Source: Bdellovibrionia bacterium
GTDB lineage: Bacteria; Bdellovibrionota; Bdellovibrionia; Bdellovibrionales; JAUICD01
Direction of reading: 5' to 3'
DNA length: 64,000 nucleotides
Assembly: GCA_030427965.1 (NCBI GenBank)
Contig: JAUICD010000010.1
Coordinates: 16,854-80,853, forward strand
Position 1 is the stretch's first letter, and the number at the start of each line of letters is the position of its first letter. The notes beneath the pieces were generated by a model. The model had not been told where the DNA came from. It saw only the letters and a list, made by a program, of their open reading frames with translations, and did not search any database. Below, one piece after another: positions 3 to 25,126 of the stretch. A program made the position numbers and the translations under genes.

Positions 3-218
3 TTGAATCAATTTCCTGTTTCTGTTGTCAGTTTAGAAGATTTAATTGCATTGAAAATTCAAGCCTACGTAAATGATCCGAAAAGAGAATTTCAAGACAA
101 AGCTGATATACTAGCCCTTTTGCAAAACAACCCCGATGCCGATTATGGTATAATTAAAGCTTATGCAGATATGTTTGGGCAGTGGTCAGCAGTAGAGGAT
201 ATAAAAAATAAGCTATGA
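3..218 (+). CDS. Nucleotidyltransferase-like protein (DUF6036/AbiEii-like), C-terminal part, truncated by the window edge
   Basis: VVSLEDLIALK...R..D..D pattern typical of the C-terminus of this nucleotidyltransferase class. Confidence 0.6.
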   Translation: MNQFPVSVVSLEDLIALKIQAYVNDPKREFQDKADILALLQNNPDADYGIIKAYADMFGQWSAVEDIKNKL

Positions 219-577: not shown

Positions 578-904
578 TCAGCCTTGTCTGAACCGATTTA
601 AGTACTCTTCAAGCTCAGTAAGGCATTTACTCAAGCCTGTGTGGTCGCCACTTTCAATATGCTTTCGAATTTGGACCGCAATATCAGTGATCTCCTGAAA
701 ACCGTAGGCTGCGCCATTTCCCTTGAGTTTGTGGGCTAGGCGATCTGCTTCAACGAGGTCCTTTTCTTGGACAAGTTTTTTTAGTTGATCCAAATCATAG
801 AACCTTCGAACCAAGAAAGAGGGAAGGAAATCTCTCAACTCTTCTTCAACTTGAATGTTTTTTAGCTCAGAGATATTCACATTGGATTCGCTGTAGTTGC
901 TCAT
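578..904 (-). CDS. Stand-alone Hpt (histidine phosphotransfer) protein
   Basis: AHKLKGNGAAYG Hpt motif; 108 aa, helical; GGAGG RBS. Confidence 0.9.
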   Translation of the reverse strand: MSNYSESNVNISELKNIQVEEELRDFLPSFLVRRFYDLDQLKKLVQEKDLVEADRLAHKLKGNGAAYGFQEITDIAVQIRKHIESGDHTGLSKCLTELEEYLNRFRQG

Positions 905-1096
905 AACTCTATACCTCCACTAAGAGAGTCAATTCTACTGAGGTTCGACTCTATATGTCTATTATCGGCTGAAATTCGTCCTAATATCGTTGAAAGATTA
1001 TTGGGAATTCACAACAATTGCTAAAATAGGGCAATTCCTATTGGTTACTTAGTAAAAATACCCGAGAATGGAAACTAGGAATAACCAGGAGCTACT

Positions 1097-1780
1097 GTGA
1101 AAGCACTTGTCGTAGATGATTGTATTGATACAAGACTGAAGGTGAAAAGTGCGCTTTCCCCGTATGTTGTATTTGAGGCGGAAAATCTTTCTTGCGCAAG
1201 GGGCATTTTAAAAGACACCCCAGACTTAGATATTATAATTTTAGATGTTGGTCTTCCTGACGGAAGTGGGATCGACTTTTGTGAGGAACTTGCTATTTCT
1301 TCGGTTCTTGAGAGAACACCGCTTTTGATTATTTCTGGGCATGATCAATTGGGGGATCGACTGGCGGGGCTGCACGCAGGAGCAGATGACTATCTCACAA
1401 AGCCCTTTCACTCCAGTGAGCTTCGCGCTCGAGTTGAAGCTGTTTTAAGAAGATACAGTCCCAAAAATGATGACATACGAATTGATGAATTTGTGATTGA
1501 ACCAAGTAAGTTGAAGGTGACAAAAATTGTAGGTGGTCAAAGCCAAGAGTTGGTTTTGACGCCAACAGAGTTTAAACTTTTTTATACTCTTATACGTCAT
1601 CCTGAACAGGTTTTCACGCGAGAAGAGCTTGTAAAACACATATGGTCTATTGGCATTAGTATTGAGAGTCGGGGAATAGATAGTCACATCTGTCACCTTC
1701 GTAGTAAATTGGGATCTGATGGATCAAAAGTTCAATCTGTCTACGGAAAAGGATACAAATACGCATCTAAGCACGATTAG
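1097..1780 (+). CDS. OmpR/PhoB-family response regulator
   Basis: REC domain (VVDD, LDVGLPDGSG, GADDYLTKPF) plus winged helix (LTPTEF, HICHLRSKL, VYGKGY); AGGAG RBS, GTG start. Confidence 0.93.
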   Translation: MKALVVDDCIDTRLKVKSALSPYVVFEAENLSCARGILKDTPDLDIIILDVGLPDGSGIDFCEELAISSVLERTPLLIISGHDQLGDRLAGLHAGADDYLTKPFHSSELRARVEAVLRRYSPKNDDIRIDEFVIEPSKLKVTKIVGGQSQELVLTPTEFKLFYTLIRHPEQVFTREELVKHIWSIGISIESRGIDSHICHLRSKLGSDGSKVQSVYGKGYKYASKHD

Positions 1781-1789
1781 GAGAGTTTT

Positions 1790-2155
1790 ATGGAAAACTT
1801 TATGCCTCACGGGCACTGTTATCTTTGGCGTCCAGATATTCTTTGGCTTCACATTATTTCAGATGTGATTATTGCAACAGCATATTTTGTTATCCCCATT
1901 GGTTTATTCATTATCTTTAGAAGTTTAAAAGACAATTCAGCTAGATGGTCTTTTGTGATGTTTGGACTTTTTATTGTTTTTTGCGGACTGACTCATTTGT
2001 TTTCAATAGTCACTATTTGGAAGCCATACTATCTTGCAGAAGGAATTTTAAAAGCTGCAACAGCTGCAATTTCTATTGCAACAGCATTCCTTTTTGCCCC
2101 CGTTGTCTTTGCCTTCGTGCGAAACCAAAGAGATAAGGAGAATTCAAATAGTTAA
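1790..2155 (+). CDS. Stand-alone ethylene-receptor-like (ETR1 N-terminal) three-TM sensor-domain protein
   Basis: MPHGHCYLW leader; SDxxIAxAYFxIP and FIVFCGLTH motifs match the ETR1 D25/Y32/I35/P36/C65/H69 positions; 3 TM helices; AGGAG RBS. Confidence 0.85.
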   Translation: MENFMPHGHCYLWRPDILWLHIISDVIIATAYFVIPIGLFIIFRSLKDNSARWSFVMFGLFIVFCGLTHLFSIVTIWKPYYLAEGILKAATAAISIATAFLFAPVVFAFVRNQRDKENSNS

Positions 2156-4673
2156 AAGACTGAGTGACATTCTAGATTGGGCTCAAAGAGGACTTGCCTT
2201 AAAAGAGTATCTCATGCTCACCACAATTTTTGGATGTGGTGTTTTTCTATCTACACTATTCTTTTATGCGAGTTTAAATAAATACGCCAATGACCAAAAA
2301 CAAAGAGATGTTTCCAGTGTTAAGCAGTATTTGAATCAAATCAATTCATTCAATTCAAAACATAAATTGGGCTTAAAACATATAGCAAATTCATCAATCT
2401 ATTTGATTGATTCTACCAATGCCCCTCTTACACACATGATGGAGCGATTTTTAGAAGACTCTAAATTCAAAACTCTTTCTATTCTGAAAGTTAAAGAAAA
2501 TGGCAATGACTTCAAAGTCCAAGTACTAAAGAACGAAGGTGATAAAAAATATTTTTCAAGATTTTCATTTGAGCACCTATTCAGTCGATATTTCAAAGCA
2601 AATGAGGCGACGTTAAGGCCTCATTCTTTTTTTATCGACTCAACTGACAGTAAGCGAGTGGCTCTTGCTATCGTGGTGCCCGATAGGGGGCGACGCAATA
2701 CCTTCTATTTGGGATTGATAGAGCTCCGTGGTATTTTTGAGGGTATCAGAATTGAAAAATCTATACACGTGGTCGTTTCAACTAAGCTGGGCCGAAAGTT
2801 TATTGTTCGTGCAAGAGTTGGGACAGAACATATTTCTTATGAATTACTTGATGGGAAGAGCCTGATTAAACTTCATGATTTAGGTGTTCCCAATGTGTCG
2901 ACAGATTTAGAAGCTATCCGGTTTTATAGTTTGGATTTTGAACACGTGGGATGGCCTTGGTTTATCTTGCTAGGCAGTCTTTTGATAACACTTATCCTAA
3001 CAATTTGGCTGATGGGTGTGTTGAGACGTGGTGTGGAAGTTCGAGAGATGGTAAAGATTCGAACTCGTGAGCTGGAGTTGGAAACTGAGCGAGCAGAAAG
3101 GGCGAATTCTTCTAAAACGAGATTTCTTGCAAATATGAGCCACGAAATCCGTACGCCCCTAAATATTATTTTGGGTATGGCTGAAATTCTAAATGAATCT
3201 GAATTGAATGAAATTCAAAGGGGAAACCTTAAAACAATTTCTCGTTCTTCATATCACCTTTTGAGTTTGATTGAAGATATTCTTGAGGTAAACCGTATTG
3301 AGGCAAGTGGTGATTTAAAGTGTGAGTATGAAGAGTTCAATTTAAAGAAAGTTGTAAATGAAATTGTGCGATTCACAGCAGCTCCCATACGTTCGAAAAA
3401 AGTAAAGTTTCACTATTATATGGATCCAGAACTTCCACGACTTATCAATGGAGATGCAAGACGTCTTAAGCAAGTTATTTTAAATCTCATCAACAATTCC
3501 TTGAAGTTTACAGATGCGGGCTCGATTGAACTTGAGATTCGACTTGGAGATGAGGGGGAACCAAGTTCTCAGTTAAAGATTCTTGTAAGGGACACTGGGA
3601 TTGGCATTAAAAAAGAAGAGCAACAGCGTATATTTGATAGTTTTGTACAGGTGGATCCTTCTTCTACGCGGAGTAAAGGTGGCGCGGGATTGGGACTATC
3701 AATCGTAAAGACCTATGTGGAAAGTATGGGTGGAGAGATTCAAGTTGTCTCTGAACGAAATGTGGGAACGAAATTTACAGTGACAATTCCATTTACATAC
3801 TCGGATGACAGAAGATCTTGGGTGGAGTTTTTTAATCTAAGAGATGATTTACTTGGAAAGAAAATTTTTGTCATGTGTGAGAGCCAGTTGGAGTTTGATA
3901 ACATCGCAGGTCCTTTGAAACACTTTGGTGCTGAAGTCACTCACTGTAAAACTGGACGAGAGTTGGCTGGAGATATAGAAAATATTTTTTCTATATATGA
4001 TTACTTTGTTCTAGACTCAACCATGAGTGATCTTGGAGCGCTGGAAATTCTTGGGCTAAATAAAAATAGGATTAAAAAGAAAAACCGTATTGTGGTCATG
4101 TTGCATCAGAGGTACCGCAAGGGAGATATCGCTGCTCTTGAGATCTTAGGTATAGAAAGGGTTTGTTTTAAACCACTTATTTTCAATGAGTTTTTTAAGG
4201 CACTGAAATTCAATGAAAAATTTTTGGTATCACGACCTGAACGTTCAGGAGAACATGTTGCTGATGTGATACCCTTTTCGGTTCCAGTGCTTATTGCAGA
4301 AGACGACCCAGACAATCGTATGCTTATAGAAACTTTTTTAAAACCAATGAAACTCAATTTGGTTTTTGCTGTGGACGGTGAAGATGCTCTTCAAAAATTT
4401 CTGGAGTTTGAACCACAAATTGTAATTACTGATATTCAAATGCCCAAAATGGATGGATTCGGATTTTTAAAAGAGGCTAAAAAGTACCTGCATTCGATGA
4501 GTTTAGATGAGCATTGCTACTTTATGGTTTTAACAGCAGATGCAATGCCAGAACAAATTCAAGAAGCAAAACGCCTAGGAGCTGAAGAGTATTTAACAAA
4601 ACCTATCCGTAAACATGATTTTATAAACAAAGTCATCAAGGCCTATGAGACCTTGATGACCAGAAACCCTTAG
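2148..4673 (+). CDS. Hybrid sensor histidine kinase (TM-periplasmic-TM, HisKA, HATPase, degenerate REC, REC)
   Basis: FLANMSHEIRTPLN H-box, NLINNSLKFT N-box, DTGIGI, GAGLGLSI, C-terminal AEDD/TDIQMP/KP; start uncertain (ATA 2148 with AAGGAG RBS, TTG 2076 or ATG 2214). Confidence 0.9.
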   Translation: MVKRLSDILDWAQRGLALKEYLMLTTIFGCGVFLSTLFFYASLNKYANDQKQRDVSSVKQYLNQINSFNSKHKLGLKHIANSSIYLIDSTNAPLTHMMERFLEDSKFKTLSILKVKENGNDFKVQVLKNEGDKKYFSRFSFEHLFSRYFKANEATLRPHSFFIDSTDSKRVALAIVVPDRGRRNTFYLGLIELRGIFEGIRIEKSIHVVVSTKLGRKFIVRARVGTEHISYELLDGKSLIKLHDLGVPNVSTDLEAIRFYSLDFEHVGWPWFILLGSLLITLILTIWLMGVLRRGVEVREMVKIRTRELELETERAERANSSKTRFLANMSHEIRTPLNIILGMAEILNESELNEIQRGNLKTISRSSYHLLSLIEDILEVNRIEASGDLKCEYEEFNLKKVVNEIVRFTAAPIRSKKVKFHYYMDPELPRLINGDARRLKQVILNLINNSLKFTDAGSIELEIRLGDEGEPSSQLKILVRDTGIGIKKEEQQRIFDSFVQVDPSSTRSKGGAGLGLSIVKTYVESMGGEIQVVSERNVGTKFTVTIPFTYSDDRRSWVEFFNLRDDLLGKKIFVMCESQLEFDNIAGPLKHFGAEVTHCKTGRELAGDIENIFSIYDYFVLDSTMSDLGALEILGLNKNRIKKKNRIVVMLHQRYRKGDIAALEILGIERVCFKPLIFNEFFKALKFNEKFLVSRPERSGEHVADVIPFSVPVLIAEDDPDNRMLIETFLKPMKLNLVFAVDGEDALQKFLEFEPQIVITDIQMPKMDGFGFLKEAKKYLHSMSLDEHCYFMVLTADAMPEQIQEAKRLGAEEYLTKPIRKHDFINKVIKAYETLMTRNP

Positions 4674-4696
4674 ATACCCCGACTACAGACAACTTC

Positions 4697-5299
4697 TTAA
4701 CTTGCAATAAGCTTAAGTGACCTTGATTGGATCTCGCCATAGCCCATGGGTTTTTGCCAGTGACCATCATAGACAAAGTGAGAATTTTCTTTAAGCCGAA
4801 TCTCACTTCGTTTGGCGCTACTAAAAGTGATCAAGTTGAAAGCTTTGTTTTCAAACTGGCTTTTTAAAACATCTGTTGCTTCCACAGTTTGGTGAAAATC
4901 ATCTAAGACCTCTTGGCCAATATGGTTCTCATTGAGGAACCAATCTAAGATGACAGTATCGTACTCTTTTAGGGTCAACTGTTTTGCTGCATCGTAAACA
5001 TTTTCTACAGTTTCAACTTCACAGCCAATATTTCTTAAAGCAGTTGAAACAAGTTGAGCTGTATCAAAGTCGTCCTCAACAACAAGTACACGCGCTTGTT
5101 TTGAGCTTCTTTTGGCTTTGACATTGCTGTAGGAAGTAAACCCCCCAACAACATGAATGAAAAGCCCAATTATAACTGCAGCAAAAAGAGGAACGATCAA
5201 GAGTGCGATAAAGACTGGGGCAAGGAAAGCTAGGCCAAGTCCCCATATGGATGCCACACAGAAAATCGCTATTGGTAGAATTAGGTGATTCGTTTTCAT
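4697..5299 (-). CDS. Membrane-anchored receiver-domain protein
   Basis: N-terminal hydrophobic hairpin then REC (VVEDD, ILDW, QKP); no output domain; AAGGAG RBS before ATG 5299. Confidence 0.8.
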   Translation of the reverse strand: MKTNHLILPIAIFCVASIWGLGLAFLAPVFIALLIVPLFAAVIIGLFIHVVGGFTSYSNVKAKRSSKQARVLVVEDDFDTAQLVSTALRNIGCEVETVENVYDAAKQLTLKEYDTVILDWFLNENHIGQEVLDDFHQTVEATDVLKSQFENKAFNLITFSSAKRSEIRLKENSHFVYDGHWQKPMGYGEIQSRSLKLIAS

Positions 5300-5483: not shown

Positions 5484-7094
5484 CTAAATTTGTCGAGCAA
5501 GCTCAATCAATGGTGTAACAGAGTTCCCACTAACTTGAACTATAGAGGGTCGGGCAGTGACTGGAGATGGAGCATTTAAAAGAGCTGCGATCGTTGCTCC
5601 ATAGTGTCCAATATCAAGAGGTATATTTCCGCCAACAGGAGCCCCATATCCCCAAGAGCCAGAGTGTCCGCCATCAGGCGAGTCACTGAAAACGTTTCCA
5701 AGAACAATAGGACCATTTATAATGCCTGAATAGATCGCACAACTTGCGCCCTGCCACCCATGATCGGATCCTGTTCCATTATTCTTTGGAGAACGATTGA
5801 ATTCCCCTCCTACGTCAATAACTGTATCTTGGAAAAGACCATTGTTCTTTAGTTGCTGTATCAACTCATAAAGACAGGAGCTGAGTGCGCGATAGTACAT
5901 AACATTAATTATAAGACTCGGCATTCGCCCAACATTGTGTTCATCTGGAGCTTGATTGGCGTTTCCACCTACGGCAGCAAGTCCTGAAATAAATCTTGGT
6001 GAAATTGTAACGGATTCGCTTAAATTATTGGCGATAACATATTCTGCTACTGCAAAATGTTCAGCCATTCGTTCAATGTTTTGTGTTCCGTTAAAAAGAG
6101 TTCTCAAATCACTGTTTTGTATAATGCGCCCATTGATTTGATACTGATTACCACGTGCCCCATCGTTTCCGATTCTTTGATCTGTGATTCCAGGGATACT
6201 GACTGATATGTCGAGCGATCTTGCAATAAGATTGCGATACTTGTTTCGTAGTTGATTCCAAATAGCATTGAGGTCTCCAAAAGATGTATTGATCAACTCT
6301 TCGGCGTCTTTTTGGCTATTTGCGATAATTTCAGATGCAGGGTGCTTTGATTTTGCAAGGTTGTTGAGCGCATTTGTTGCGGCATCAACAGAACCTTTTA
6401 TTGAACCCAGCTTTTGTTTGTAATCACTTGAAGCGCCACTCAAGAATGGATTGAGTAAGTTTTGAATCATATTTCCATTTGATGGAAGAAATACAGAAGA
6501 GTACCCTGATTTTGAAAGAAACTGATAATTGCTCGAATTAACATTTAGAGCTTTGATAGGTGCATCAGAACCATCGGAGGTAAGAGCTGTAACACTTCGC
6601 TTGGCACCTAAAGGGCGCATGTGAAGGGCTTGTGCTCCAGGATGTCCAGGGTTTAATGCATTGATACCGCGAATATGTAAGAGATTGTCCAAAAGGTTGA
6701 CCATAGGAACTTGTCCGCCAGGTGTTGGAATATTGCTCCCCCACATGACAGGGACTTGTATACCTTTTCTTTGAATGGTTTCGTATCTTACTTTGTTATT
6801 GCCATCATATCGTGTCCCCAATTGCCCATTTGAAATAAACCCTGCCGTTGAATAAGGAGTCAGAAAGAGGTCATACATCCATCGAGCGGGCGCTCCACTT
6901 TGTTGGATATAGATGAACTTTCTTGCGTTATAGCCTGTGGACTGAGCCATCGCGCGGTTGAACAATCCATTTATTAAGCTTTCAAATAAAATTGCGGCGG
7001 CACTCCCTGAGATAGCAGCTGTTCCAGAAGAGAGCCCCATTGCTTTGAGGATATCTCTTCTATCAAATCCACGTTTCTTTTGTGAGTGAGACAT
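5484..7094 (-). CDS. DUF1501-family Tat-exported protein
   Basis: DRRDILK twin-arginine signal; C-terminal GEFNRSP...GSDH motif. Confidence 0.8.
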   Translation of the reverse strand: MSHSQKKRGFDRRDILKAMGLSSGTAAISGSAAAILFESLINGLFNRAMAQSTGYNARKFIYIQQSGAPARWMYDLFLTPYSTAGFISNGQLGTRYDGNNKVRYETIQRKGIQVPVMWGSNIPTPGGQVPMVNLLDNLLHIRGINALNPGHPGAQALHMRPLGAKRSVTALTSDGSDAPIKALNVNSSNYQFLSKSGYSSVFLPSNGNMIQNLLNPFLSGASSDYKQKLGSIKGSVDAATNALNNLAKSKHPASEIIANSQKDAEELINTSFGDLNAIWNQLRNKYRNLIARSLDISVSIPGITDQRIGNDGARGNQYQINGRIIQNSDLRTLFNGTQNIERMAEHFAVAEYVIANNLSESVTISPRFISGLAAVGGNANQAPDEHNVGRMPSLIINVMYYRALSSCLYELIQQLKNNGLFQDTVIDVGGEFNRSPKNNGTGSDHGWQGASCAIYSGIINGPIVLGNVFSDSPDGGHSGSWGYGAPVGGNIPLDIGHYGATIAALLNAPSPVTARPSIVQVSGNSVTPLIELARQI

Positions 7095-7106
7095 TTGCTT
7101 CTCCTA

Positions 7107-8501
7107 TTACCTAGTGTAATTACTATTTCTATACTCAGGCAAATTCATTATCTCTTGAATCATGGTGCGAAGAGTTTGATGGTTTTGAAGTCGTAAACCA
7201 AGTGTAACAACATTTTGTCGATGTAAGGCTTCAGTTGGATTCATTTGAATCTTATTGCCAGGGTCGTTGAGATCTCCAATATTAACATCCACTCCAAGAA
7301 AATATTTGTAATATTTTTTGGCAGCACAGATGTACAAATCGGGTTGAGTTGCGAGCTTGTTTCCAAGATCTTGTACGGAGGTCACATTGATATCAATGAG
7401 GTTTCCGTTGTGATTTCTGTAGTAGAGAACGCCATTGGTTGGACGCTTCCAATAGTTGTTGTCAATGTTAGCTGGCCACGAGCTTTCAGGGCCCAAAGTT
7501 GGAGCTGGCCACCCGATAAAAGTTGCGGACTCAGGACGATTCCCGGTGCCTGAGTTGCCAATGGTTGTGTATCGCACATTTCGGTTTGCTGCTGCCATTC
7601 TGTCCATAGAGGCATGGCAAGAGGTGCAAGACGAGGTTTTTCGAAATTCAATTCCAGCATTTCCGTTTACAAATGGTTCAGCATCAGAGTTTCGGACAAC
7701 TGGGAGTTCTCGGCAAAGCATGTCGTTGAAAACTGCACGGGCCCACTTTCTCGGCATATTGAGGCTATTGGCTCTAAAGTTGTCATTCTCGTTGAGGCTC
7801 ATCAGATTGTAAACAGTTGTTCCGAGAAGGCCTCCTCCCACAGTTCGACCACGTTGAACAACTCCTCCACCGTTGAAGTTGTGGGTTAAGTTGTTTTCTG
7901 CAGCAGTCATTGGCCGTACTCCTAAGAGATCGCCTTTTGCGGCAAAATTGAAGTTTGTAAAAATATAATCTGATTCGGGTAGATTCGATGCAGGTCCTCG
8001 ATTGGGACTCATGTTTGTTCGAATTGGAACCAGAGTCTTGTTGTCAGTCACAACTGTTGAATAGTTGTGGTTGGTTCGAAAGAGAGCACGGGTTAAGTAA
8101 AGTGCTGGTGTTGTAATATCATAAAGGTCTTGAGTTCCTCGGTGATGTCTTATGTTATTGATAACTGGAATATCTTTATTCTCAAAAAAACTGAAGTGCA
8201 AGTTGTGCATTGTCCTTAAAACCTGTTTTGCAACCCGGTCGTTGGCGTTTCCGATACGATTGTCATTTGATGTGAATCGTGCGCGATTTAAAACTTGAAG
8301 ACACGCATCTATAGGATTGGTTGTGCCATTCTCGACAGCCTGAGTAAGTGGAGCATTGTAATCGGGGCGTTCTTGGGTCAGATGTGCGTAACAACGGTAG
8401 TACAAAGAGAGATTGTTCAGTGGTGTAGCAGAGCCAATGTTTGGCAATATTATGATCAAAGCAACAAGAATTGTTTTGCTGTATTTCATCATCTTATGCA
8501 T
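7107..8501 (-). CDS. Secreted CxxCH protein of the DUF1585/DUF1588-like (PSCyt-associated) type
   Basis: Signal peptide; CTSCHASMD heme-binding-like motif; C-terminal DLG..LA....YICAAKKYY. Confidence 0.65.
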   Translation of the reverse strand: MHKMMKYSKTILVALIIILPNIGSATPLNNLSLYYRCYAHLTQERPDYNAPLTQAVENGTTNPIDACLQVLNRARFTSNDNRIGNANDRVAKQVLRTMHNLHFSFFENKDIPVINNIRHHRGTQDLYDITTPALYLTRALFRTNHNYSTVVTDNKTLVPIRTNMSPNRGPASNLPESDYIFTNFNFAAKGDLLGVRPMTAAENNLTHNFNGGGVVQRGRTVGGGLLGTTVYNLMSLNENDNFRANSLNMPRKWARAVFNDMLCRELPVVRNSDAEPFVNGNAGIEFRKTSSCTSCHASMDRMAAANRNVRYTTIGNSGTGNRPESATFIGWPAPTLGPESSWPANIDNNYWKRPTNGVLYYRNHNGNLIDINVTSVQDLGNKLATQPDLYICAAKKYYKYFLGVDVNIGDLNDPGNKIQMNPTEALHRQNVVTLGLRLQNHQTLRTMIQEIMNLPEYRNSNYTR

Positions 8502-8505
8502 CCCC

Positions 8506-9489
8506 TCAAAAAATATCCAAAAGCGAAGACTTACACATTGATGTCATGACAAATCTCCACTGATCCAATCCGTTCATAGCTTTTGCTTGAGCCGCGCTTG
8601 CCACACCAATAAGTGCGTTGACTGAAGCACTGTTTAAGGCAACTCCAGGAAAGAAAACAGTGGCCAACTGCTGCACATTGTTGGCATTTCTTCCTGAGCT
8701 CTGCGCAAGCCCTACTTTTGCTAGAACTGTTACAACTGATCGGTTGATTGAGAGTATTTCCTCACAAGAAATTGAGGTGTATCCCTTCCGAGTGGTATCT
8801 CCAAGAGGGTTAACCCCGGCTGCGACAGTAACAACATGAGTGTCTCTGTTTCCTGGACAATCGTCCTCATATCTTGAACATGGTCCCCCCAATGCTCCCG
8901 GTTGGTTGAGGATATTTTGGGTTATTATGTTCAAAGCGGTATTGTCGACGTTATTTGGATCAATAAAGATATCTTGGAAGCTACTGCTTGCGTGTGTGCG
9001 AGTTCCTATAGTGGCTTTGACTTCAAAATTTGCTTCAGCCATAACATCAACTCTCAAGAAATCTGATATCGCCTGTCTCTGAGTCTGTGAGAGAAAACTC
9101 AAGCCTCTCATTCCAGAGACGTTGGATATTCCATTGTTGATTGAAGCAAGACTTGCATTGGTTTTTTGTGAACCTGGATTTGGATGAGATAAATGGCAGC
9201 TTGCGCAGTGAAGGCTGTAGAGAGCTTCGCCATTTGGGATTCCAGGAAGAGTCGTTGTTGTTGTCACAGTGGTTGTGGTGATGGTCGTTGTCGTTGTATT
9301 GCCACGGAGAGTGGTTGTTGTCACAGTGGTTGTTGTGGTGGCTTGATCCGGAAGTGTTATAGATGTAATGGAGCTACCCTCAGAGGAAAGTTCTTCTACA
9401 ACCAGGGCTGGTTTAAAGCTTTTACCACATCCTATAAAAGCTAGTGGGAGTGATACTAGAAAAGCAAAATGTTGAATTTTGTTTCTCAT
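8506..9489 (-). CDS. Cytochrome c-domain lipoprotein with Thr-rich linker
   Basis: Lipobox FIGC; GEALYSLHCASCH with downstream Met (SGM); poly-Thr linker; GAGGGG RBS before ATG 9489. Confidence 0.8.
   Translation of the reverse strand: MRNKIQHFAFLVSLPLAFIGCGKSFKPALVVEELSSEGSSITSITLPDQATTTTTVTTTTLRGNTTTTTITTTTVTTTTTLPGIPNGEALYSLHCASCHLSHPNPGSQKTNASLASINNGISNVSGMRGLSFLSQTQRQAISDFLRVDVMAEANFEVKATIGTRTHASSSFQDIFIDPNNVDNTALNIITQNILNQPGALGGPCSRYEDDCPGNRDTHVVTVAAGVNPLGDTTRKGYTSISCEEILSINRSVVTVLAKVGLAQSSGRNANNVQQLATVFFPGVALNSASVNALIGVASAAQAKAMNGLDQWRFVMTSMCKSSLLDIF
9257..9333. repeat. 20-bp direct repeat (57-nt period) in the Thr-rich linker
   Basis: GTTGTTGTCACAGTGGTTGT at 9257-9276 and 9314-9333. 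Confidence 0.8.
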
Positions 9490-9515
9490 TTTGTGCCCCC
9501 TCAATGTACTTAAAT

Positions 9516-20966: not shown

Positions 20967-23216
20967 TCAGCCCCCGAATGAGGTTTCAGATTTTCCATCA
21001 AAGAGAAAGAGAATTTCAAATCCAAAAGAAGAGGAGGCTCCAACCTCCTGTCTGTGCGAGAAGTCAAAGGCCCAGCAGTTTCCAGGTGGTTTGAGCCGAA
21101 GTCGATATTTATAGGAACGAACTTTTTCAGTTAAAATAGAGTAGGTGATTCCACCATCTAAGGAAAAAAAGTTGGAAATGACCCCAGCTCGAAAAGTCAT
21201 GTCTTGTACGCGTTGAACTGTTTGAATTCCGTCATTGTCTTGCAAATTGAAGTCCTGCAAATACTCAAGTTCAACGTAATCGCCAAAATCTCCAGAAGCT
21301 CTCAAGCGAGAAGAGACGGTGGCTTCATTTTGGTAGGGAAAGTACTTTAAAACTGTGTGAGTGTTGAAGTTATCGAGTCGAATATTTAGTAAACTGACAA
21401 GTTCTGACCATGGTTGTTTGGGAGAATCTGTTTCTCTATAAGCTTCATAGAAGTCATAGGATTGTGAAATGTGAAAGTTGATGATTCTTTGATACTCACC
21501 ACTAGTGCCATTCCAACGTCTTCGAACAATGTTATTATTCAGTGCAAAAGTCACAATGTTGCTATCTGTAAGGCGGTCTTTGTAGTCAAATTGAAGTTTG
21601 TCACCGTCAACAAGGGGTTGATTTTGTTTAAAGAAAAGTTCTTCATCTGTTTCTTTAAAAAACGGGTGTTCTTCTGTAGATCTCCAAGGGATATTGGAGT
21701 AGCTAATAATAGGTTGAATTTCGTGCCGATATCTTGTGTCTTTTAATTCCTTTCCACCATATATGGCACTCAATCGTGTTCGAGCATCCAGTTGAGTTCG
21801 TAAAAAACGTCGCTCTGTGGTTGGGTCGACTCCATCTTTGAATTGGTATCTCATCTCCTGATAGGAAACAGAAGGGATAAGTTCAATTCGATTTCCTAGA
21901 TTAAAAGGAGTTGAAAGCCTGGGAGTCACAATAATTCTTTGTCCAGTTCGGTAGTCATCGACATCCTCATTGAATTCGGTGCCATCTGATGTGTCATTGT
22001 CGTCAAAAGAGTTTTCTCGACGAGCAAAATTGATGTAGTTGAACGAAAGGTCTGCAAAAATGGGAGTGTCTCCAAGGCGACTTGGTACTAGTACGCTTCG
22101 GATTTCAGGATACCTATGTACAGAATTGGAATTGTCGTGAATAGGGCTTGATTCCAAAAGACTATGGTAGAGAGAGGCATCCACGCTGGAGTGGGTACTT
22201 TCAGTGTTCTTTGCAAACGAGACTCGGTTCTCTAAAGCAGGGTCACCGTGACCTGGCATTTCATTTGGGAAATCTTTTGGAAAGAGAGTGTCACTGACCA
22301 AATTGATATCGATGTCATTGAAATATCCGTTTGGAAGCTCATAGTGGTGACCATATCTGAAATGATATCGCCCAAGTGGCTCGTCGACTTCGGGGCGTCT
22401 TAGTCGAATCCTTTCCTCATTGCTAGCAGCGTATCGGTCTTTCATATAAGAGGTGTCAAATTCTCCGCCACTTTCTTCGCTCAAAAGATATCTGTAATTG
22501 AGAAGTCCTTTGGCGCCACGTTTTTCGTAATTAGTTAGAGCAATTGTTGCATCTTGATTGTCAGAGATGGCCCAAAAAAACTCTTCAGTGATAGAAAAAC
22601 CACTTGTCCCGTCTACTTCAAATTTCGGGAATAAGAACCCTGTTTGACGTTTACTCTTTAGAGGAACAACAAGATAGGGAAGCCAAAAAACTGGAATTCC
22701 AGCAATTTTCAATGTAGAGCTCTTAATATGGGCGTATCCTCCGATTTCCGCATTGATTTTAGAGCCTGAAAAACTCCAGGCGGGAGGACATGTGGAGCAT
22801 GCCGTGTAGTATCCATCCTCTGCTTCAAAAGTGGTTTTGCTTGTGCGGTTGACAACTTTACCTTGAAATGCAATTTGCCCAACTAGCACAAACCCATTTT
22901 TGATGGAACCAGTTTCTTCTGCGTAATTGAGGAAAATCTCATCACCTTCCATATATATTTCAGTTCCAATAAGTTTGACATTGCCTCTAGCGACAACTTT
23001 TTTTTCTTTGAGATAAATGATAGCTTCATCGCAGGTGAGTGTTTCATCTTTGAAGGTTGCGCTTACATTTTTTGTAAGTGCAATGGTTCCTTCTTTTAGA
23101 TTTCGTTTCATGTTGTCCGCACTTAAGGAGAGCTCACCATCTGGGGTTGCAAATTGTGAGAAGCTCACAGAGTGATAAAAAAATATAAAAAGTAGAGAAA
23201 TAATTTTACCAATCAC
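20967..23216 (-). CDS. lptD: LPS-assembly protein
   Basis: OstA-like N-domain, YTACSTCPPAWS, PVFWLPY, RQTGFLFP, C-terminal NCWAF; 749 aa. Confidence 0.9.
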   Translation of the reverse strand: MIGKIISLLFIFFYHSVSFSQFATPDGELSLSADNMKRNLKEGTIALTKNVSATFKDETLTCDEAIIYLKEKKVVARGNVKLIGTEIYMEGDEIFLNYAEETGSIKNGFVLVGQIAFQGKVVNRTSKTTFEAEDGYYTACSTCPPAWSFSGSKINAEIGGYAHIKSSTLKIAGIPVFWLPYLVVPLKSKRQTGFLFPKFEVDGTSGFSITEEFFWAISDNQDATIALTNYEKRGAKGLLNYRYLLSEESGGEFDTSYMKDRYAASNEERIRLRRPEVDEPLGRYHFRYGHHYELPNGYFNDIDINLVSDTLFPKDFPNEMPGHGDPALENRVSFAKNTESTHSSVDASLYHSLLESSPIHDNSNSVHRYPEIRSVLVPSRLGDTPIFADLSFNYINFARRENSFDDNDTSDGTEFNEDVDDYRTGQRIIVTPRLSTPFNLGNRIELIPSVSYQEMRYQFKDGVDPTTERRFLRTQLDARTRLSAIYGGKELKDTRYRHEIQPIISYSNIPWRSTEEHPFFKETDEELFFKQNQPLVDGDKLQFDYKDRLTDSNIVTFALNNNIVRRRWNGTSGEYQRIINFHISQSYDFYEAYRETDSPKQPWSELVSLLNIRLDNFNTHTVLKYFPYQNEATVSSRLRASGDFGDYVELEYLQDFNLQDNDGIQTVQRVQDMTFRAGVISNFFSLDGGITYSILTEKVRSYKYRLRLKPPGNCWAFDFSHRQEVGASSSFGFEILFLFDGKSETSFGG

Positions 23217-25126
23217 AAGACCAGCTTTTCTGATGAATTTGTACGATTGCTCAAATTGGATTGTTTGGGGGTTGGATCTGAAGTTTTTAAACTGAGTGGG
23301 TCTTTGAGGTTAAGTCCATTTTTTTGGTTGTGTTTTTTTTCGTGTACTTCATTTGATTTTCGAAACCAGGTTAAAATCAAAAATACAAAAAAGACAAGCA
23401 GGATGGGAAGTGAGACATTGACAAGAGTTCCATTTTTGTAGAGAAGAAAAAAGTCGAGTAGATATATGACTGAAGCAAGAAATAGAGAGAGAAGAAAACC
23501 ATAAAATATGCGAATTTGTGAAAGAAAGCAACTAAAAGTTATTCCAATCAATAAAAGAGCAGCAAGCATCCATGGGGCTTCCAAAGTGACATTGTGGGTA
23601 AGGAAGTTTTTATCTAAAATATTCCCAATTATATTTGCATGAGCTTCAAGCTTTAAGAACTTCTTATCAAACGGGGTCTGAATATAGTTTTTTGAATCTC
23701 TTAAGCCAATAAGAAATGTTTTATCTCGAATATAACGAGATTTGGAAATGCTCATTTGTTCAATGCGACCGTTTAAAAGTTTTGTTATTTCAGATTTATC
23801 AGATTCATTAAAAAGTTCTGAAGCTCTCATATGAGGGTAGGTGTAGCTGGGGCCAGAGAAGTTGATATAAAGATTCCCTCTTGAATCTGTTGGTATTGGA
23901 GTGGTGTTCTCACCTGTGTCGAGATTTGTGAGAGACAAAGTTGAAATGAACTTATTTCCAGTGATGGTGTGTTGTTCCATCACGACAGAAGAACCGAGTT
24001 GTTCTTTGAGCATTGCAGTTTTAAGAGCTAAAGAAGGGAGAAAGAGCTCTCCCCACCGAACGACAAGTGGGACTTTACGAGTGATTCCATCTGAATCCTT
24101 TGGGATATTGAAAAATGCACTAAATTTTGTTCCTTGACTGATAATTCCAGTATTGACCACCCAGTTTCCAGTATAGGGAACTAAGTTTTTAGGCACAGAA
24201 TTTTTAAAATCATCTATGAACTTATTTGGAGATATTTCTTTTAAGCTGGAATCGCTTTCTTGAATTGAGCCCCATGTGTCTTTAAGGATTTGAATGAGAG
24301 GGTCTGAATTGGATGTCAGCCATTGGGAACAAAACTCTTCCTGAGACTTTAAAATGGCCCTCTGGGTTTTGTTTCTTCTCGACCAGCGATTTTCAGAGGA
24401 ATAGCGCTCTTTGATGGAATCTTCAATTTGAGTCAGTTCTTGTTCAAATAAAGAGTATAGAAATTCAGGTGGATTTATAGGATAGTTATCTACAGAAACA
24501 AGGTGGCGTTGATCGTTTTCTAGTACAAGATAATTGGGATCATTGAGAGTAATGGTTTGTTGGCAAATTTCCTGATAAGGGTATAATTGAGATGAACTCT
24601 CTTTCCAAGCCCCAGCCATAATCAAGCTTTCACTGTGGCGTTCAATGGCTCGTGAAAACTGAATGTCTGTATTGAGTTTTCGTATTGCGCGGTTGATAAG
24701 CCCTAGGCTTTCTGTATCAGATGTTTGCCCACGGAGGTATTCTAGGTATTTGAGTGCTTCTGCATTTTCAGATCCTGAAAAAAGGATATCAAAGCCGATG
24801 ATATTTGCACCATAGGCCATTAGGCGCTCCACTATGTCTGCCATTCGGCTTCGAGACCAGGGCCATTTGCCAATATTGTCAGTGGCTTCGGAGTCAATTA
24901 CGAGTAGGACAATAGAGTTATTGGGAGATGTAGGGCCTTTTGTTTGCATCTTGAAGTCAGAAAGTACGTGATGGATTCTTTCTAGAATCCTGGGACTGTC
25001 TTGAGGAGTTAGATTGTAATACTGGACTGAGACAAAGAGAGAAAAAATAAGGGTTGTTAAAATGCCGATTTTGAATGGAGTAAGGTTGGCGAAAACCTTT
25101 CCTAGCTTTTTGATCGATTCAGGCAT
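23213..25126 (-). CDS. CHASE2-domain membrane protein with no cytoplasmic output domain
   Basis: IGKWPWSR, GFDILF, DSDGITR, EAHANII then 3 TM helices and only a short tail. Confidence 0.85.
   Translation of the reverse strand: MPESIKKLGKVFANLTPFKIGILTTLIFSLFVSVQYYNLTPQDSPRILERIHHVLSDFKMQTKGPTSPNNSIVLLVIDSEATDNIGKWPWSRSRMADIVERLMAYGANIIGFDILFSGSENAEALKYLEYLRGQTSDTESLGLINRAIRKLNTDIQFSRAIERHSESLIMAGAWKESSSQLYPYQEICQQTITLNDPNYLVLENDQRHLVSVDNYPINPPEFLYSLFEQELTQIEDSIKERYSSENRWSRRNKTQRAILKSQEEFCSQWLTSNSDPLIQILKDTWGSIQESDSSLKEISPNKFIDDFKNSVPKNLVPYTGNWVVNTGIISQGTKFSAFFNIPKDSDGITRKVPLVVRWGELFLPSLALKTAMLKEQLGSSVVMEQHTITGNKFISTLSLTNLDTGENTTPIPTDSRGNLYINFSGPSYTYPHMRASELFNESDKSEITKLLNGRIEQMSISKSRYIRDKTFLIGLRDSKNYIQTPFDKKFLKLEAHANIIGNILDKNFLTHNVTLEAPWMLAALLLIGITFSCFLSQIRIFYGFLLSLFLASVIYLLDFFLLYKNGTLVNVSLPILLVFFVFLILTWFRKSNEVHEKKHNQKNGLNLKDPLSLKTSDPTPKQSNLSNRTNSSEKLVL

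Follow-up and report, generated by a model that had tools for sequence, protein, structure and literature searches.

Can the ethylene-binding domain (EBD) of the ETR1 family, which is normally one part of a longer signalling protein, serve as a sensor when it is made as a separate small protein? This question is raised by a locus in a Bdellovibrionia bacterium (assembly GCA_030427965.1), found within a stretch of 64,000 nucleotides of contig JAUICD010000010.1 (positions 16,854 to 80,853, forward strand). This whole stretch is called the window here, and all coordinates are positions within it unless another locus is named. We found that a complete EBD is encoded as a protein of its own between a regulator gene and a hybrid kinase gene, and that such stand-alone EBD genes are repeatedly followed by kinase genes. 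This recurring pairing suggests a receptor built from two proteins. Positions 578–5299 hold five genes, namely a divergent Hpt gene, an operon of three genes (OmpR-type regulator, EBD, hybrid kinase) and a convergent gene for a membrane-anchored receiver. A preliminary description of the locus had given the positions and domains of all five, and open reading frames and Pfam matches confirmed them:

578..904, minus strand, stand-alone Hpt protein of 108 residues, divergent from the operon (PF01627, E 1.5e-10, 41.6 bits; AHKLKG histidine motif)
1097..1780, plus strand, OmpR/PhoB-type response regulator of 227 residues, first gene of the operon (Response_reg 7.8e-19, Trans_reg_C 2.4e-20)
1790..2155, plus strand, stand-alone EBD protein of 121 residues with three transmembrane (TM) segments (PF25487 ETR1_N, E 9.6e-31, 106.4 bits)
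2076..4673, plus strand, frame of the hybrid histidine kinase (HisKA, HATPase_c, Response_reg)
4697..5299, minus strand, membrane-anchored single-domain receiver, about 200 residues from the ATG at 5299, frame to 5317 (Response_reg 4.9e-08, 33.6 bits versus a cut-off of 30.2)

A complete ethylene-binding domain

The 121-residue protein has PF25487 as its sole Pfam match, with 106.4 bits against a cut-off of 27 and over profile positions 2–93 of 97; no NCBIfam model matches it, and the 3.19-Mb assembly of the organism has no other ETR1_N match. The two motifs quoted in the preliminary description (SD..IA.AYF.IP and FIVFCGLTH) are present in the translation, and the profile search with the ETR1 N-terminal domain that it had proposed gave a clear match in which copper-site and ethylene-site residues are intact. 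A hydropathy scan placed TM segments at residues 25–43, 56–74 and 92–110. The AlphaFold2 model (mean pLDDT 90.5) consists of a short N-terminal helix (7–13) and three long ones (15–45, 52–77 and 81–120). Reading of the translation, with no direct alignment to ETR1, identified D25, Y32, I35, P36, I62, C65, H69 and K88. D25 is located in helix 1, C65 and H69 in helix 2, and K88, the equivalent of ETR1 K91, in helix 3. When 26 stand-alone EBDs were aligned, Y32, I62, C65, H69 and K88 did not vary and I35 hardly varied; D25 is the same in all of the 14 closest relatives. Y32 is needed for ethylene binding in this family.

It has been reported that the first 130 residues of AzoEtr1 bind ethylene, and its authors aligned D35, C75, H79 and K98 of that protein to D25, C65, H69 and K91 of ETR1 (PMC11819568). 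The spacing of these residues, D-40-C-4-H-19-K, is identical in the window protein. D25 tunes affinity and bridges to K91 (PMC10266040), I35, P36 and I62 are named as essential for ethylene binding (PMC6586836), and the conserved Cys, His and Asp are in the first place copper ligands (PMC10266040, PMC6586836).

Besides, an N-terminal motif outside the Pfam model, PHGHC(Y/F)LW (residues 6–13, window 1805–1828; PHGHCYLW here), is invariant in the 26 stand-alone EBDs and is also common in fused bacterial EBDs. Its two His and its Cys are candidates for a second metal site, and no occurrence of PHGHC was found in the literature searched. The protein ends 11 residues past helix 3. Comparison of the EBD profile with the PDB revealed no sequence-related solved structure, and the model had no Foldseek match at E ≤ 0.001, the top rows being generic three-helix membrane subunits. 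The 121-residue protein is a complete free-standing copper-type EBD, with the key residues and the three-helix fold intact.

Recurring pairing with kinase genes

The preliminary description had noted that this domain is normally fused, and genome data agree. In a phylum sample of 401 genomes, 62 had an ETR1_N match; 56 of the 68 matches were in open frames of at least 374 residues and 12 in frames of no more than 220. Ten of the 12 short-frame loci were taken, leaving out the window itself and G032, a 52-residue fragment with stops. Eight proved to be complete short genes and two were broken fused genes: the EBD frame of L017 reads into the kinase H-box and then stops, and L019 carries an in-frame TAA. 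Seven of the eight complete genes (L011, L012, L013, L014, L015, L018 and L020) are directly followed by a HisKA/HATPase_c gene, whose products have 1–3 TM segments of their own in a hydropathy scan. A pattern scan of species-representative genomes gave 27 loci, 16 with long EBD proteins, one intermediate (L124) and ten short (138–147 residues). Here all ten short EBD genes are followed by a kinase gene, at distances of −38 to +11 nucleotides, and TAATG or ATGA stop/start overlaps occur at several of the ten junctions. The ten genomes are metagenome-assembled and labelled Micavibrio, Pseudobdellovibrionaceae, Rickettsiales, Alphaproteobacteria and Methyloligellaceae; four of them, like the genome of the window, contain exactly one ETR1_N match, the stand-alone one.

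Thus, with the window included, a same-strand gene for a membrane kinase lies directly downstream of 18 of the 19 complete stand-alone EBD genes found in genomes, and in the remaining case (L016) the contig ends 120 nucleotides past the EBD gene. The conservation of kinase linkage in relatives, on which the preliminary description had made its proposal depend, was therefore observed. The linkage spans three separate all-short clades and two kinase membrane architectures. About 30 HATPase_c genes are present in the 3.19-Mb genome, which puts chance adjacency of an EBD gene and a kinase gene at about 1% per locus. As a separate observation, the intermediate gene (L124:1608–2474) is Skermanella-like and encodes about 210 residues from its likely start versus 553–559 in close relatives; it may be a truncation.

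Phylogenetic analysis also placed the window protein among stand-alone proteins. In a first EBD tree of 165 rows, based on a quick search with three rows dropped as too short or without the motif, it belonged to an all-stand-alone clade of 13 rows (SH-aLRT 98). In a second tree of 100 rows, which sampled one in three of the fused proteins and did not include L016, L063 or L064, the corresponding clade had 14 rows (SH-aLRT 97), and two more all-short clades had support of 99. The clade of the window consists of stand-alone proteins of 117–140 residues. The label stand-alone or fused changes 12–15 times on the trees versus 33–37 times when shuffled, so the split state is inherited but arose more than once. 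The split EBD and kinase extend a sensor kind known in fused form and are not unique to this genome.

In four loci, a gene for a SCO1/SenC copper chaperone (PF02630, E 1e-41 to 1e-46) immediately precedes the EBD gene, in the same orientation (L113:1166–1780, L134:1199–1807, L135:1215–1778 and L137:1114–1740). Judged from gene order, this neighbor is a candidate copper supplier for the EBD; it fits a copper-loaded EBD and equally a copper-sensing role. The genome of the window has four SCO1/SenC matches, none of them on the contig of the window.

The hybrid kinase and its putative relay

The preliminary description had assigned to the hybrid kinase a periplasmic sensor of its own. This is supported by a hydropathy scan, in which TM segments at residues 45–63 and 297–315 of the kinase frame flank about 233 residues. 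The start of the protein had to be corrected. The features concerned are as follows:

2134..2141, plus strand, Shine-Dalgarno-like TAAGGAGA in the 3' end of the EBD gene, 11 nucleotides before the EBD stop (read from the sequence)
2199..2210, plus strand, LKEY juxtamembrane motif
2208..2264, plus strand, TM1
2265..2963, plus strand, periplasmic domain
2964..3020, plus strand, TM2
3114..3305, plus strand, HisKA
3450..3797, plus strand, HATPase_c
4287..4634, plus strand, receiver
4631..4661, minus strand, terminator-like hairpin of 14 pairs, 3' of the convergent receiver gene and within the 3' end of the kinase gene (consensus scan)

The first ATG of the kinase frame (2214) is 59 nucleotides past the EBD stop, and the similarity of relatives begins upstream of it. 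Because the LKEY motif also lies just upstream of this ATG, translation is expected to start earlier. The only canonical in-frame starts upstream are TTG codons at 2076–2109, inside the EBD gene, and no in-frame ATG, GTG or TTG was read between 2110 and 2213. TAAGGAGA precedes an ATA at 2148 and the EBD stop at 2153–2155. The probable start of the kinase is TTG 2109 or a non-canonical codon beside the EBD stop (about 2148–2169), rather than ATG 2214. It is likely that the EBD and kinase genes overlap or are coupled by termination-reinitiation, as in relatives, and that TAAGGAGA is a coupling signal for the kinase. At the preceding junction, 9 nucleotides separate the regulator stop from the EBD start. 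GGAGAG is found there, 4 nucleotides before the EBD ATG, and its first base is the last base of the regulator stop codon. Promoter-like sites in a consensus scan were not more frequent than in shuffled sequence; terminator-like sites numbered 4 versus 4.3 in shuffles, which makes the hairpin at 4631–4661 weak on its own.

The sensor of the kinase is a near-orphan, with 4 matches at E ≤ 0.001 among 1.84 billion representatives. These were the protein itself (called from ATG 2214), a 5'-truncated orthologue (P0156) and two distant proteins (P0157 and P0158), which have their own methionine 16–20 residues before an LKEY/LKDY motif preceding TM1. The partner kinases of the ten short EBDs from species-representative genomes (clade B) share the build of the window kinase: a short N-terminus with L[KR]xY, in which Y is nearly invariant, followed by TM1, about 240 periplasmic residues and TM2. 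One of them, the L115 kinase, is similar to the window sensor end to end (residues 31–362, E 5.9e-19), and for the other clade-B kinases the likeness consists of the shared build and motif. A single-sequence search with the kinase among 60 relatives recovered only the TM2/linker region. A profile of the sensor (A5) matched 46 of 401 genomes. In the best 11 loci besides that of the window, the kinases have a different multi-TM N-terminus without the L[KR]xY start and are therefore at best distant orthologues.

No Pfam match was obtained for the window sensor even at an E of 1. Its model (pLDDT 64) combines an alpha/beta module with a long stalk helix, and the top Foldseek/PDB matches were dCache ligand-binding domains, with weak scores (E 7e-4 to 2e-2, TM-score 0.25–0.44). 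The homologous L135 kinase has a dCache_1 score of 27 bits versus a cut-off of 45. The periplasmic domain may be dCache-like. Two further observations concern the kinases. Residues 580–735 or so of the window kinase (window 3815–4285) look by eye like a degenerate receiver (KKIFVM, FVLDS, FKPL), and this region has no Pfam match at an E of 0.01. The partner kinases of a third clade of stand-alone EBDs (L011:6581–8158, minus strand; L012:8452–9840; L013:792–2732; L014:8566–9624; L015:8692–9765) share a multi-TM N-terminal domain that has no Pfam match even at an E of 1 and carries the motif D-x2-(T/L/M)-P-(L/H)-(G/E/N) ... (L/V)Y.

With regard to the relay, the domain set of a hybrid-kinase multistep phosphorelay is complete: HisKA, HATPase_c, receiver, Hpt and a regulator with an output domain. 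The kinase has an intact H-box (SHEIRTPL), ATPase motifs and a C-terminal receiver; the Hpt protein has the AHKLKG histidine motif; and the OmpR-type and membrane receivers keep the acidic pocket, Ser/Thr and Lys positions. The membrane-anchored receiver has a hydrophobic N-terminus, then a receiver domain with the DD, D, S and K positions, and its location beside the operon makes it a candidate member of the relay. The regulator scored below all NCBIfam equivalog cut-offs (best PhoB, 163.5 bits versus 296.2), and the best NCBIfam similarities of the kinase (BarA, 327.6 bits; TorS, 291.7 bits) were both far below cut-offs. The genome has 4 Hpt matches, and all three Hpt frames of stand-alone size have a kinase ATPase domain no more than about 2 kb away. 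This proximity fits cognate pairing by position, and separate Hpt genes beside kinases seem to be a habit of this organism. The other two such frames adjoin kinase ATPase domains on contigs C4 (21690–22288) and C65 (65062–66158).

The standard reading of such parts would be a route from His to Asp to Hpt to the OmpR-type regulator. The preliminary description had drawn a parallel with the plant phosphorelay. The parts it listed are present, but the likeness was overstated: a kinase with a receiver, an Hpt protein and a response regulator form an ordinary bacterial hybrid-kinase relay. Plant ethylene output proceeds via CTR1 and EIN2, not via an Hpt relay. Clade-B kinases are non-hybrid and are followed by a receiver gene, and 3 of 4 wider loci then have genes for receiver-kinase or receiver-Hpt proteins. 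For this reason, the EBD–kinase pair is the conserved core of these loci and the relay is local variation.

The surroundings are those of an ordinary chromosome, with ffh, rimM, trmD, argS, pyk and lptD in the window. The best named relatives of its Ffh are metagenome-assembled genomes of Bdellovibrionales/Bdellovibrionaceae (70–73% identity); this taxonomy was the basis for calling the organism predatory, a word that claimed too much. A three-gene cluster adjoins the receiver gene (5484–9504, minus strand), coding for a 536-residue protein with a twin-arginine-like N-terminus and a partial DUF1501 match, a 464-residue protein of no family and a 332-residue protein with Thr-rich repeats and a CASCH heme-type motif. 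Beside lptD is a gene for a 637-residue CHASE2-domain protein (23213–25126, minus strand; E 3.8e-37) with no other recognized domain, and a short frame at 3–218 (plus strand) is similar to the C-terminal part of an AbiEii-type nucleotidyltransferase toxin (E 2.7e-06).

Possible signalling by the pair and known systems

Domain identity, key residues, the three-helix fold, operon layout and conserved kinase pairing are observed or computed; from them we infer that the EBD binds copper and a ligand and contacts the kinase, as well as the direction in which regulation runs and the path of phosphotransfer. The preliminary description had proposed a copper-dependent co-receptor acting in trans. Its comparative part stood, and the part concerning copper, ethylene and contact is a prediction. 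We assign a probability of about 0.55 to a mechanism in which the EBD acts in trans on the kinase as a copper-dependent co-sensor in the membrane. The EBD and the hybrid kinase would be made from one transcript, probably by coupled translation, and the EBD would serve as a second sensor next to the kinase in the inner membrane. Cu(I) would be held by its Cys65/His69/Asp25 site, and ethylene, or a comparable small unsaturated molecule that is dissolved in the membrane, would bind there. Because only 11 residues follow helix 3, the signal would have to travel laterally, to the TM helices of the kinase or its L[KR]xY juxtamembrane segment, and not via a covalent linker. The kinase would then combine the EBD input with a ligand of its own, possibly dCache-like, periplasmic domain. 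Phosphate would be relayed from the His of the kinase via the receiver in the same chain and the neighboring Hpt protein to the OmpR-type regulator, and perhaps also to the membrane-anchored receiver.

A more specific version, which we regard as tentative, is a two-protein gas receptor in which a minimal copper-loaded EBD senses a membrane-dissolved alkene and signals laterally to a dCache-type kinase. Its target would be the TM and L[KR]xY segment, one kinase would integrate a periplasmic ligand and the gas, and a dedicated SCO1/SenC chaperone, encoded beside the EBD in sister lineages, would load copper from the periplasmic side, possibly through the PHGHC motif. A complex prediction for two kinase N-terminal regions and one EBD scored 0.00 versus a mark of 0.32, with controls not run, and counts neither for nor against a contact.

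Several observations weigh against a co-sensor acting on the kinase. The loci are related and do not represent 19 independent events, since the ten clade-B loci are one clade, and within the window's own clade (P0002–P0013, metagenome proteins) linkage is shown in the window alone. These closest relatives were not among the best 80 loci of a metagenome scan. The 80 loci were mostly fused and included six complete short EBD genes (L039, L063, L064, L067, L076 and L078). L039 (148 residues) is followed by a gene of outer-membrane type and no kinase; in L063 and L067 the next frame begins in the middle of a PAS domain, which makes a frameshifted fusion probable in both; downstream of L064 and L078 are PAS or kinase frames, and these two may also be broken fusions. 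L018 (6380–9229, minus strand) encodes a 177-residue EBD-like protein (62 bits) that has lost the copper-ligand Cys and His, and its gene order is that of the window (OmpR-type regulator, EBD, two-TM kinase), so the pairing can persist without the copper site. The SCO1/SenC link is limited to one subclade, and near the EBD stop the window kinase lacks a canonical start codon.

Among other explanations, the most probable one, which we still consider unlikely, is that the same two-piece sensor reports copper availability, redox state or another small ligand, and that ethylene is irrelevant here. It is consistent with the primary role of the conserved Cys, His and Asp as copper ligands, with the SCO1/SenC gene upstream of the EBD gene in one subclade and with the invariant PHGHC motif as a candidate second metal site; OmpR-family regulators also include copper regulators. 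However, I35, P36 and I62, which are tied to ethylene rather than copper binding, are kept as well, bacterial EBDs of this type, such as AzoEtr1, bind ethylene (PMC11819568), and the window regulator scored only 100.5 bits versus a cut-off of 279.2 for the copper/silver regulator subfamily.

It appears quite improbable that the small EBD protein works alone, for example in membrane copper handling or storage, and is co-transcribed with the kinase but sends it no signal. The protein has no output domain, L039 has no neighboring kinase, and the window kinase, having its own sensor domain, would work unaided. In contrast, same-strand adjacency in 18 of 19 cases, across the three all-short clades and both kinase membrane architectures, argues against such independent action, and overlapping stop/start codons indicate co-production.

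The remaining question is whether the locus is a once-fused gene that was split by a frameshift, whether through faulty assembly or a genuine mutation. The EBD is not covalently joined to an output module: its gene stops at 2155, and the kinase is in another frame. Independent re-assembly of runs holding this DNA revealed no frameshift that would fuse them. Logan contigs of two runs (X1 and X2) spanned 1000–2841 with zero differences; this is weak evidence because X1 and X2 seem to be two filings of a single data set, probably the source sample. Runs X3 and X4 left 1508–3031 uncovered, and no RNA runs were listed among the runs holding this DNA. A programmed +1 frameshift was considered and rejected by eye, as no fitting slippery site was seen and all relatives have two genes. 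Proteins of 969–986 residues (P0051, P0057, P0072 and P0105) were examined as a fused form of the window pair and rejected; they are EBD-kinase-receiver-kinase-receiver proteins and not an EBD plus a periplasmic kinase. A split gene would fit the kinase frame being open for 46 codons before its first ATG and overlapping the 3' end of the EBD gene, a fusion of 3TM-linker-TM-periplasm-TM type is topologically possible, and broken fused genes exist elsewhere (L017 and L019, probably L063 and L067), but this explanation is very improbable: among 119 fused EBD proteins examined, none continues after the EBD with a periplasmic domain enclosed by two additional TM segments (isolated hydrophobic stretches, one or two per protein, occur in 7), P0157, P0158 and the ten partner kinases have their own methionine 11–28 residues before L[KR]xY, and the window EBD belongs to an all-short clade.

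If the EBD does signal to a separate kinase, its output step would be open to study as a contact between two proteins, which in fused receptors is buried in one chain, and this bears on how ligand binding in helices 1 and 2 reaches the output. A naturally stable EBD of 117–147 residues may ease expression, studies of copper and ethylene binding and structure solution, and the SCO1/SenC neighbor is a candidate for how bacteria load the copper of the domain. These points are relevant to research on both ethylene receptors and signalling in membranes. Kinases with a fused EBD are known from bacteria, and two of them, SynEtr1 and AzoEtr1, have been characterized. Bacterial EBDs are reported with a wide range of output domains (PMC7700396), and bacterial ethylene-type sensing has so far been described in one cyanobacterium and in plant-associated Azospirillum (PMC11819568). 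The split form would extend it to Bdellovibrio-like and uncultured alphaproteobacterial lineages. In the parts of the literature searched, we found no description of a stand-alone EBD, nor of one paired as a separate gene with a kinase, although one review may list such proteins.

Comparison with known systems shows what is shared and what is different. AzoEtr1 of Azospirillum brasilense (EBD-PAS-kinase) and SynEtr1 of Synechocystis have, like the window protein, an N-terminal three-helix EBD with the same Asp/Cys/His/Lys spacing, and this type signals through a histidine kinase and a nearby response regulator (PMC11819568), as proposed here. In those proteins the kinase begins with the EBD, from which the signal passes via helix 3 into PAS/GAF and DHp, whereas the kinase of the window is separate and has two TM helices and a periplasmic domain of its own. 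Arabidopsis ETR1 belongs to the same family (PF25487), and D25, I35, P36, I62, C65, H69 and the K91 equivalent are common to both. Unlike ETR1, the window EBD has no GAF, kinase or receiver attached, and it has the N-terminus PHGHCYLW in place of the Cys4/Cys6 disulfide pair of ETR1. The BarA, TorS, ArcB and RcsC phosphorelays resemble the window system in having HisKA, HATPase_c and receiver in one chain, then Hpt and a DNA-binding regulator; here, in contrast, Hpt is a separate divergent gene instead of a C-terminal domain, the sensor is a near-orphan and the operon contains an extra gene for a putative membrane co-sensor. Small membrane proteins that modulate kinases in trans, within the membrane or periplasm, are found in the pairs MgrB-PhoQ, SafA-PhoQ and MzrA-EnvZ. 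The window EBD has no sequence relationship to MgrB, SafA or MzrA, and the likeness is an analogy only. To our knowledge, none of these three is a ligand-binding cofactor domain or the detached version of a sensor domain otherwise fused to kinases, which is what the EBD of the window would represent.

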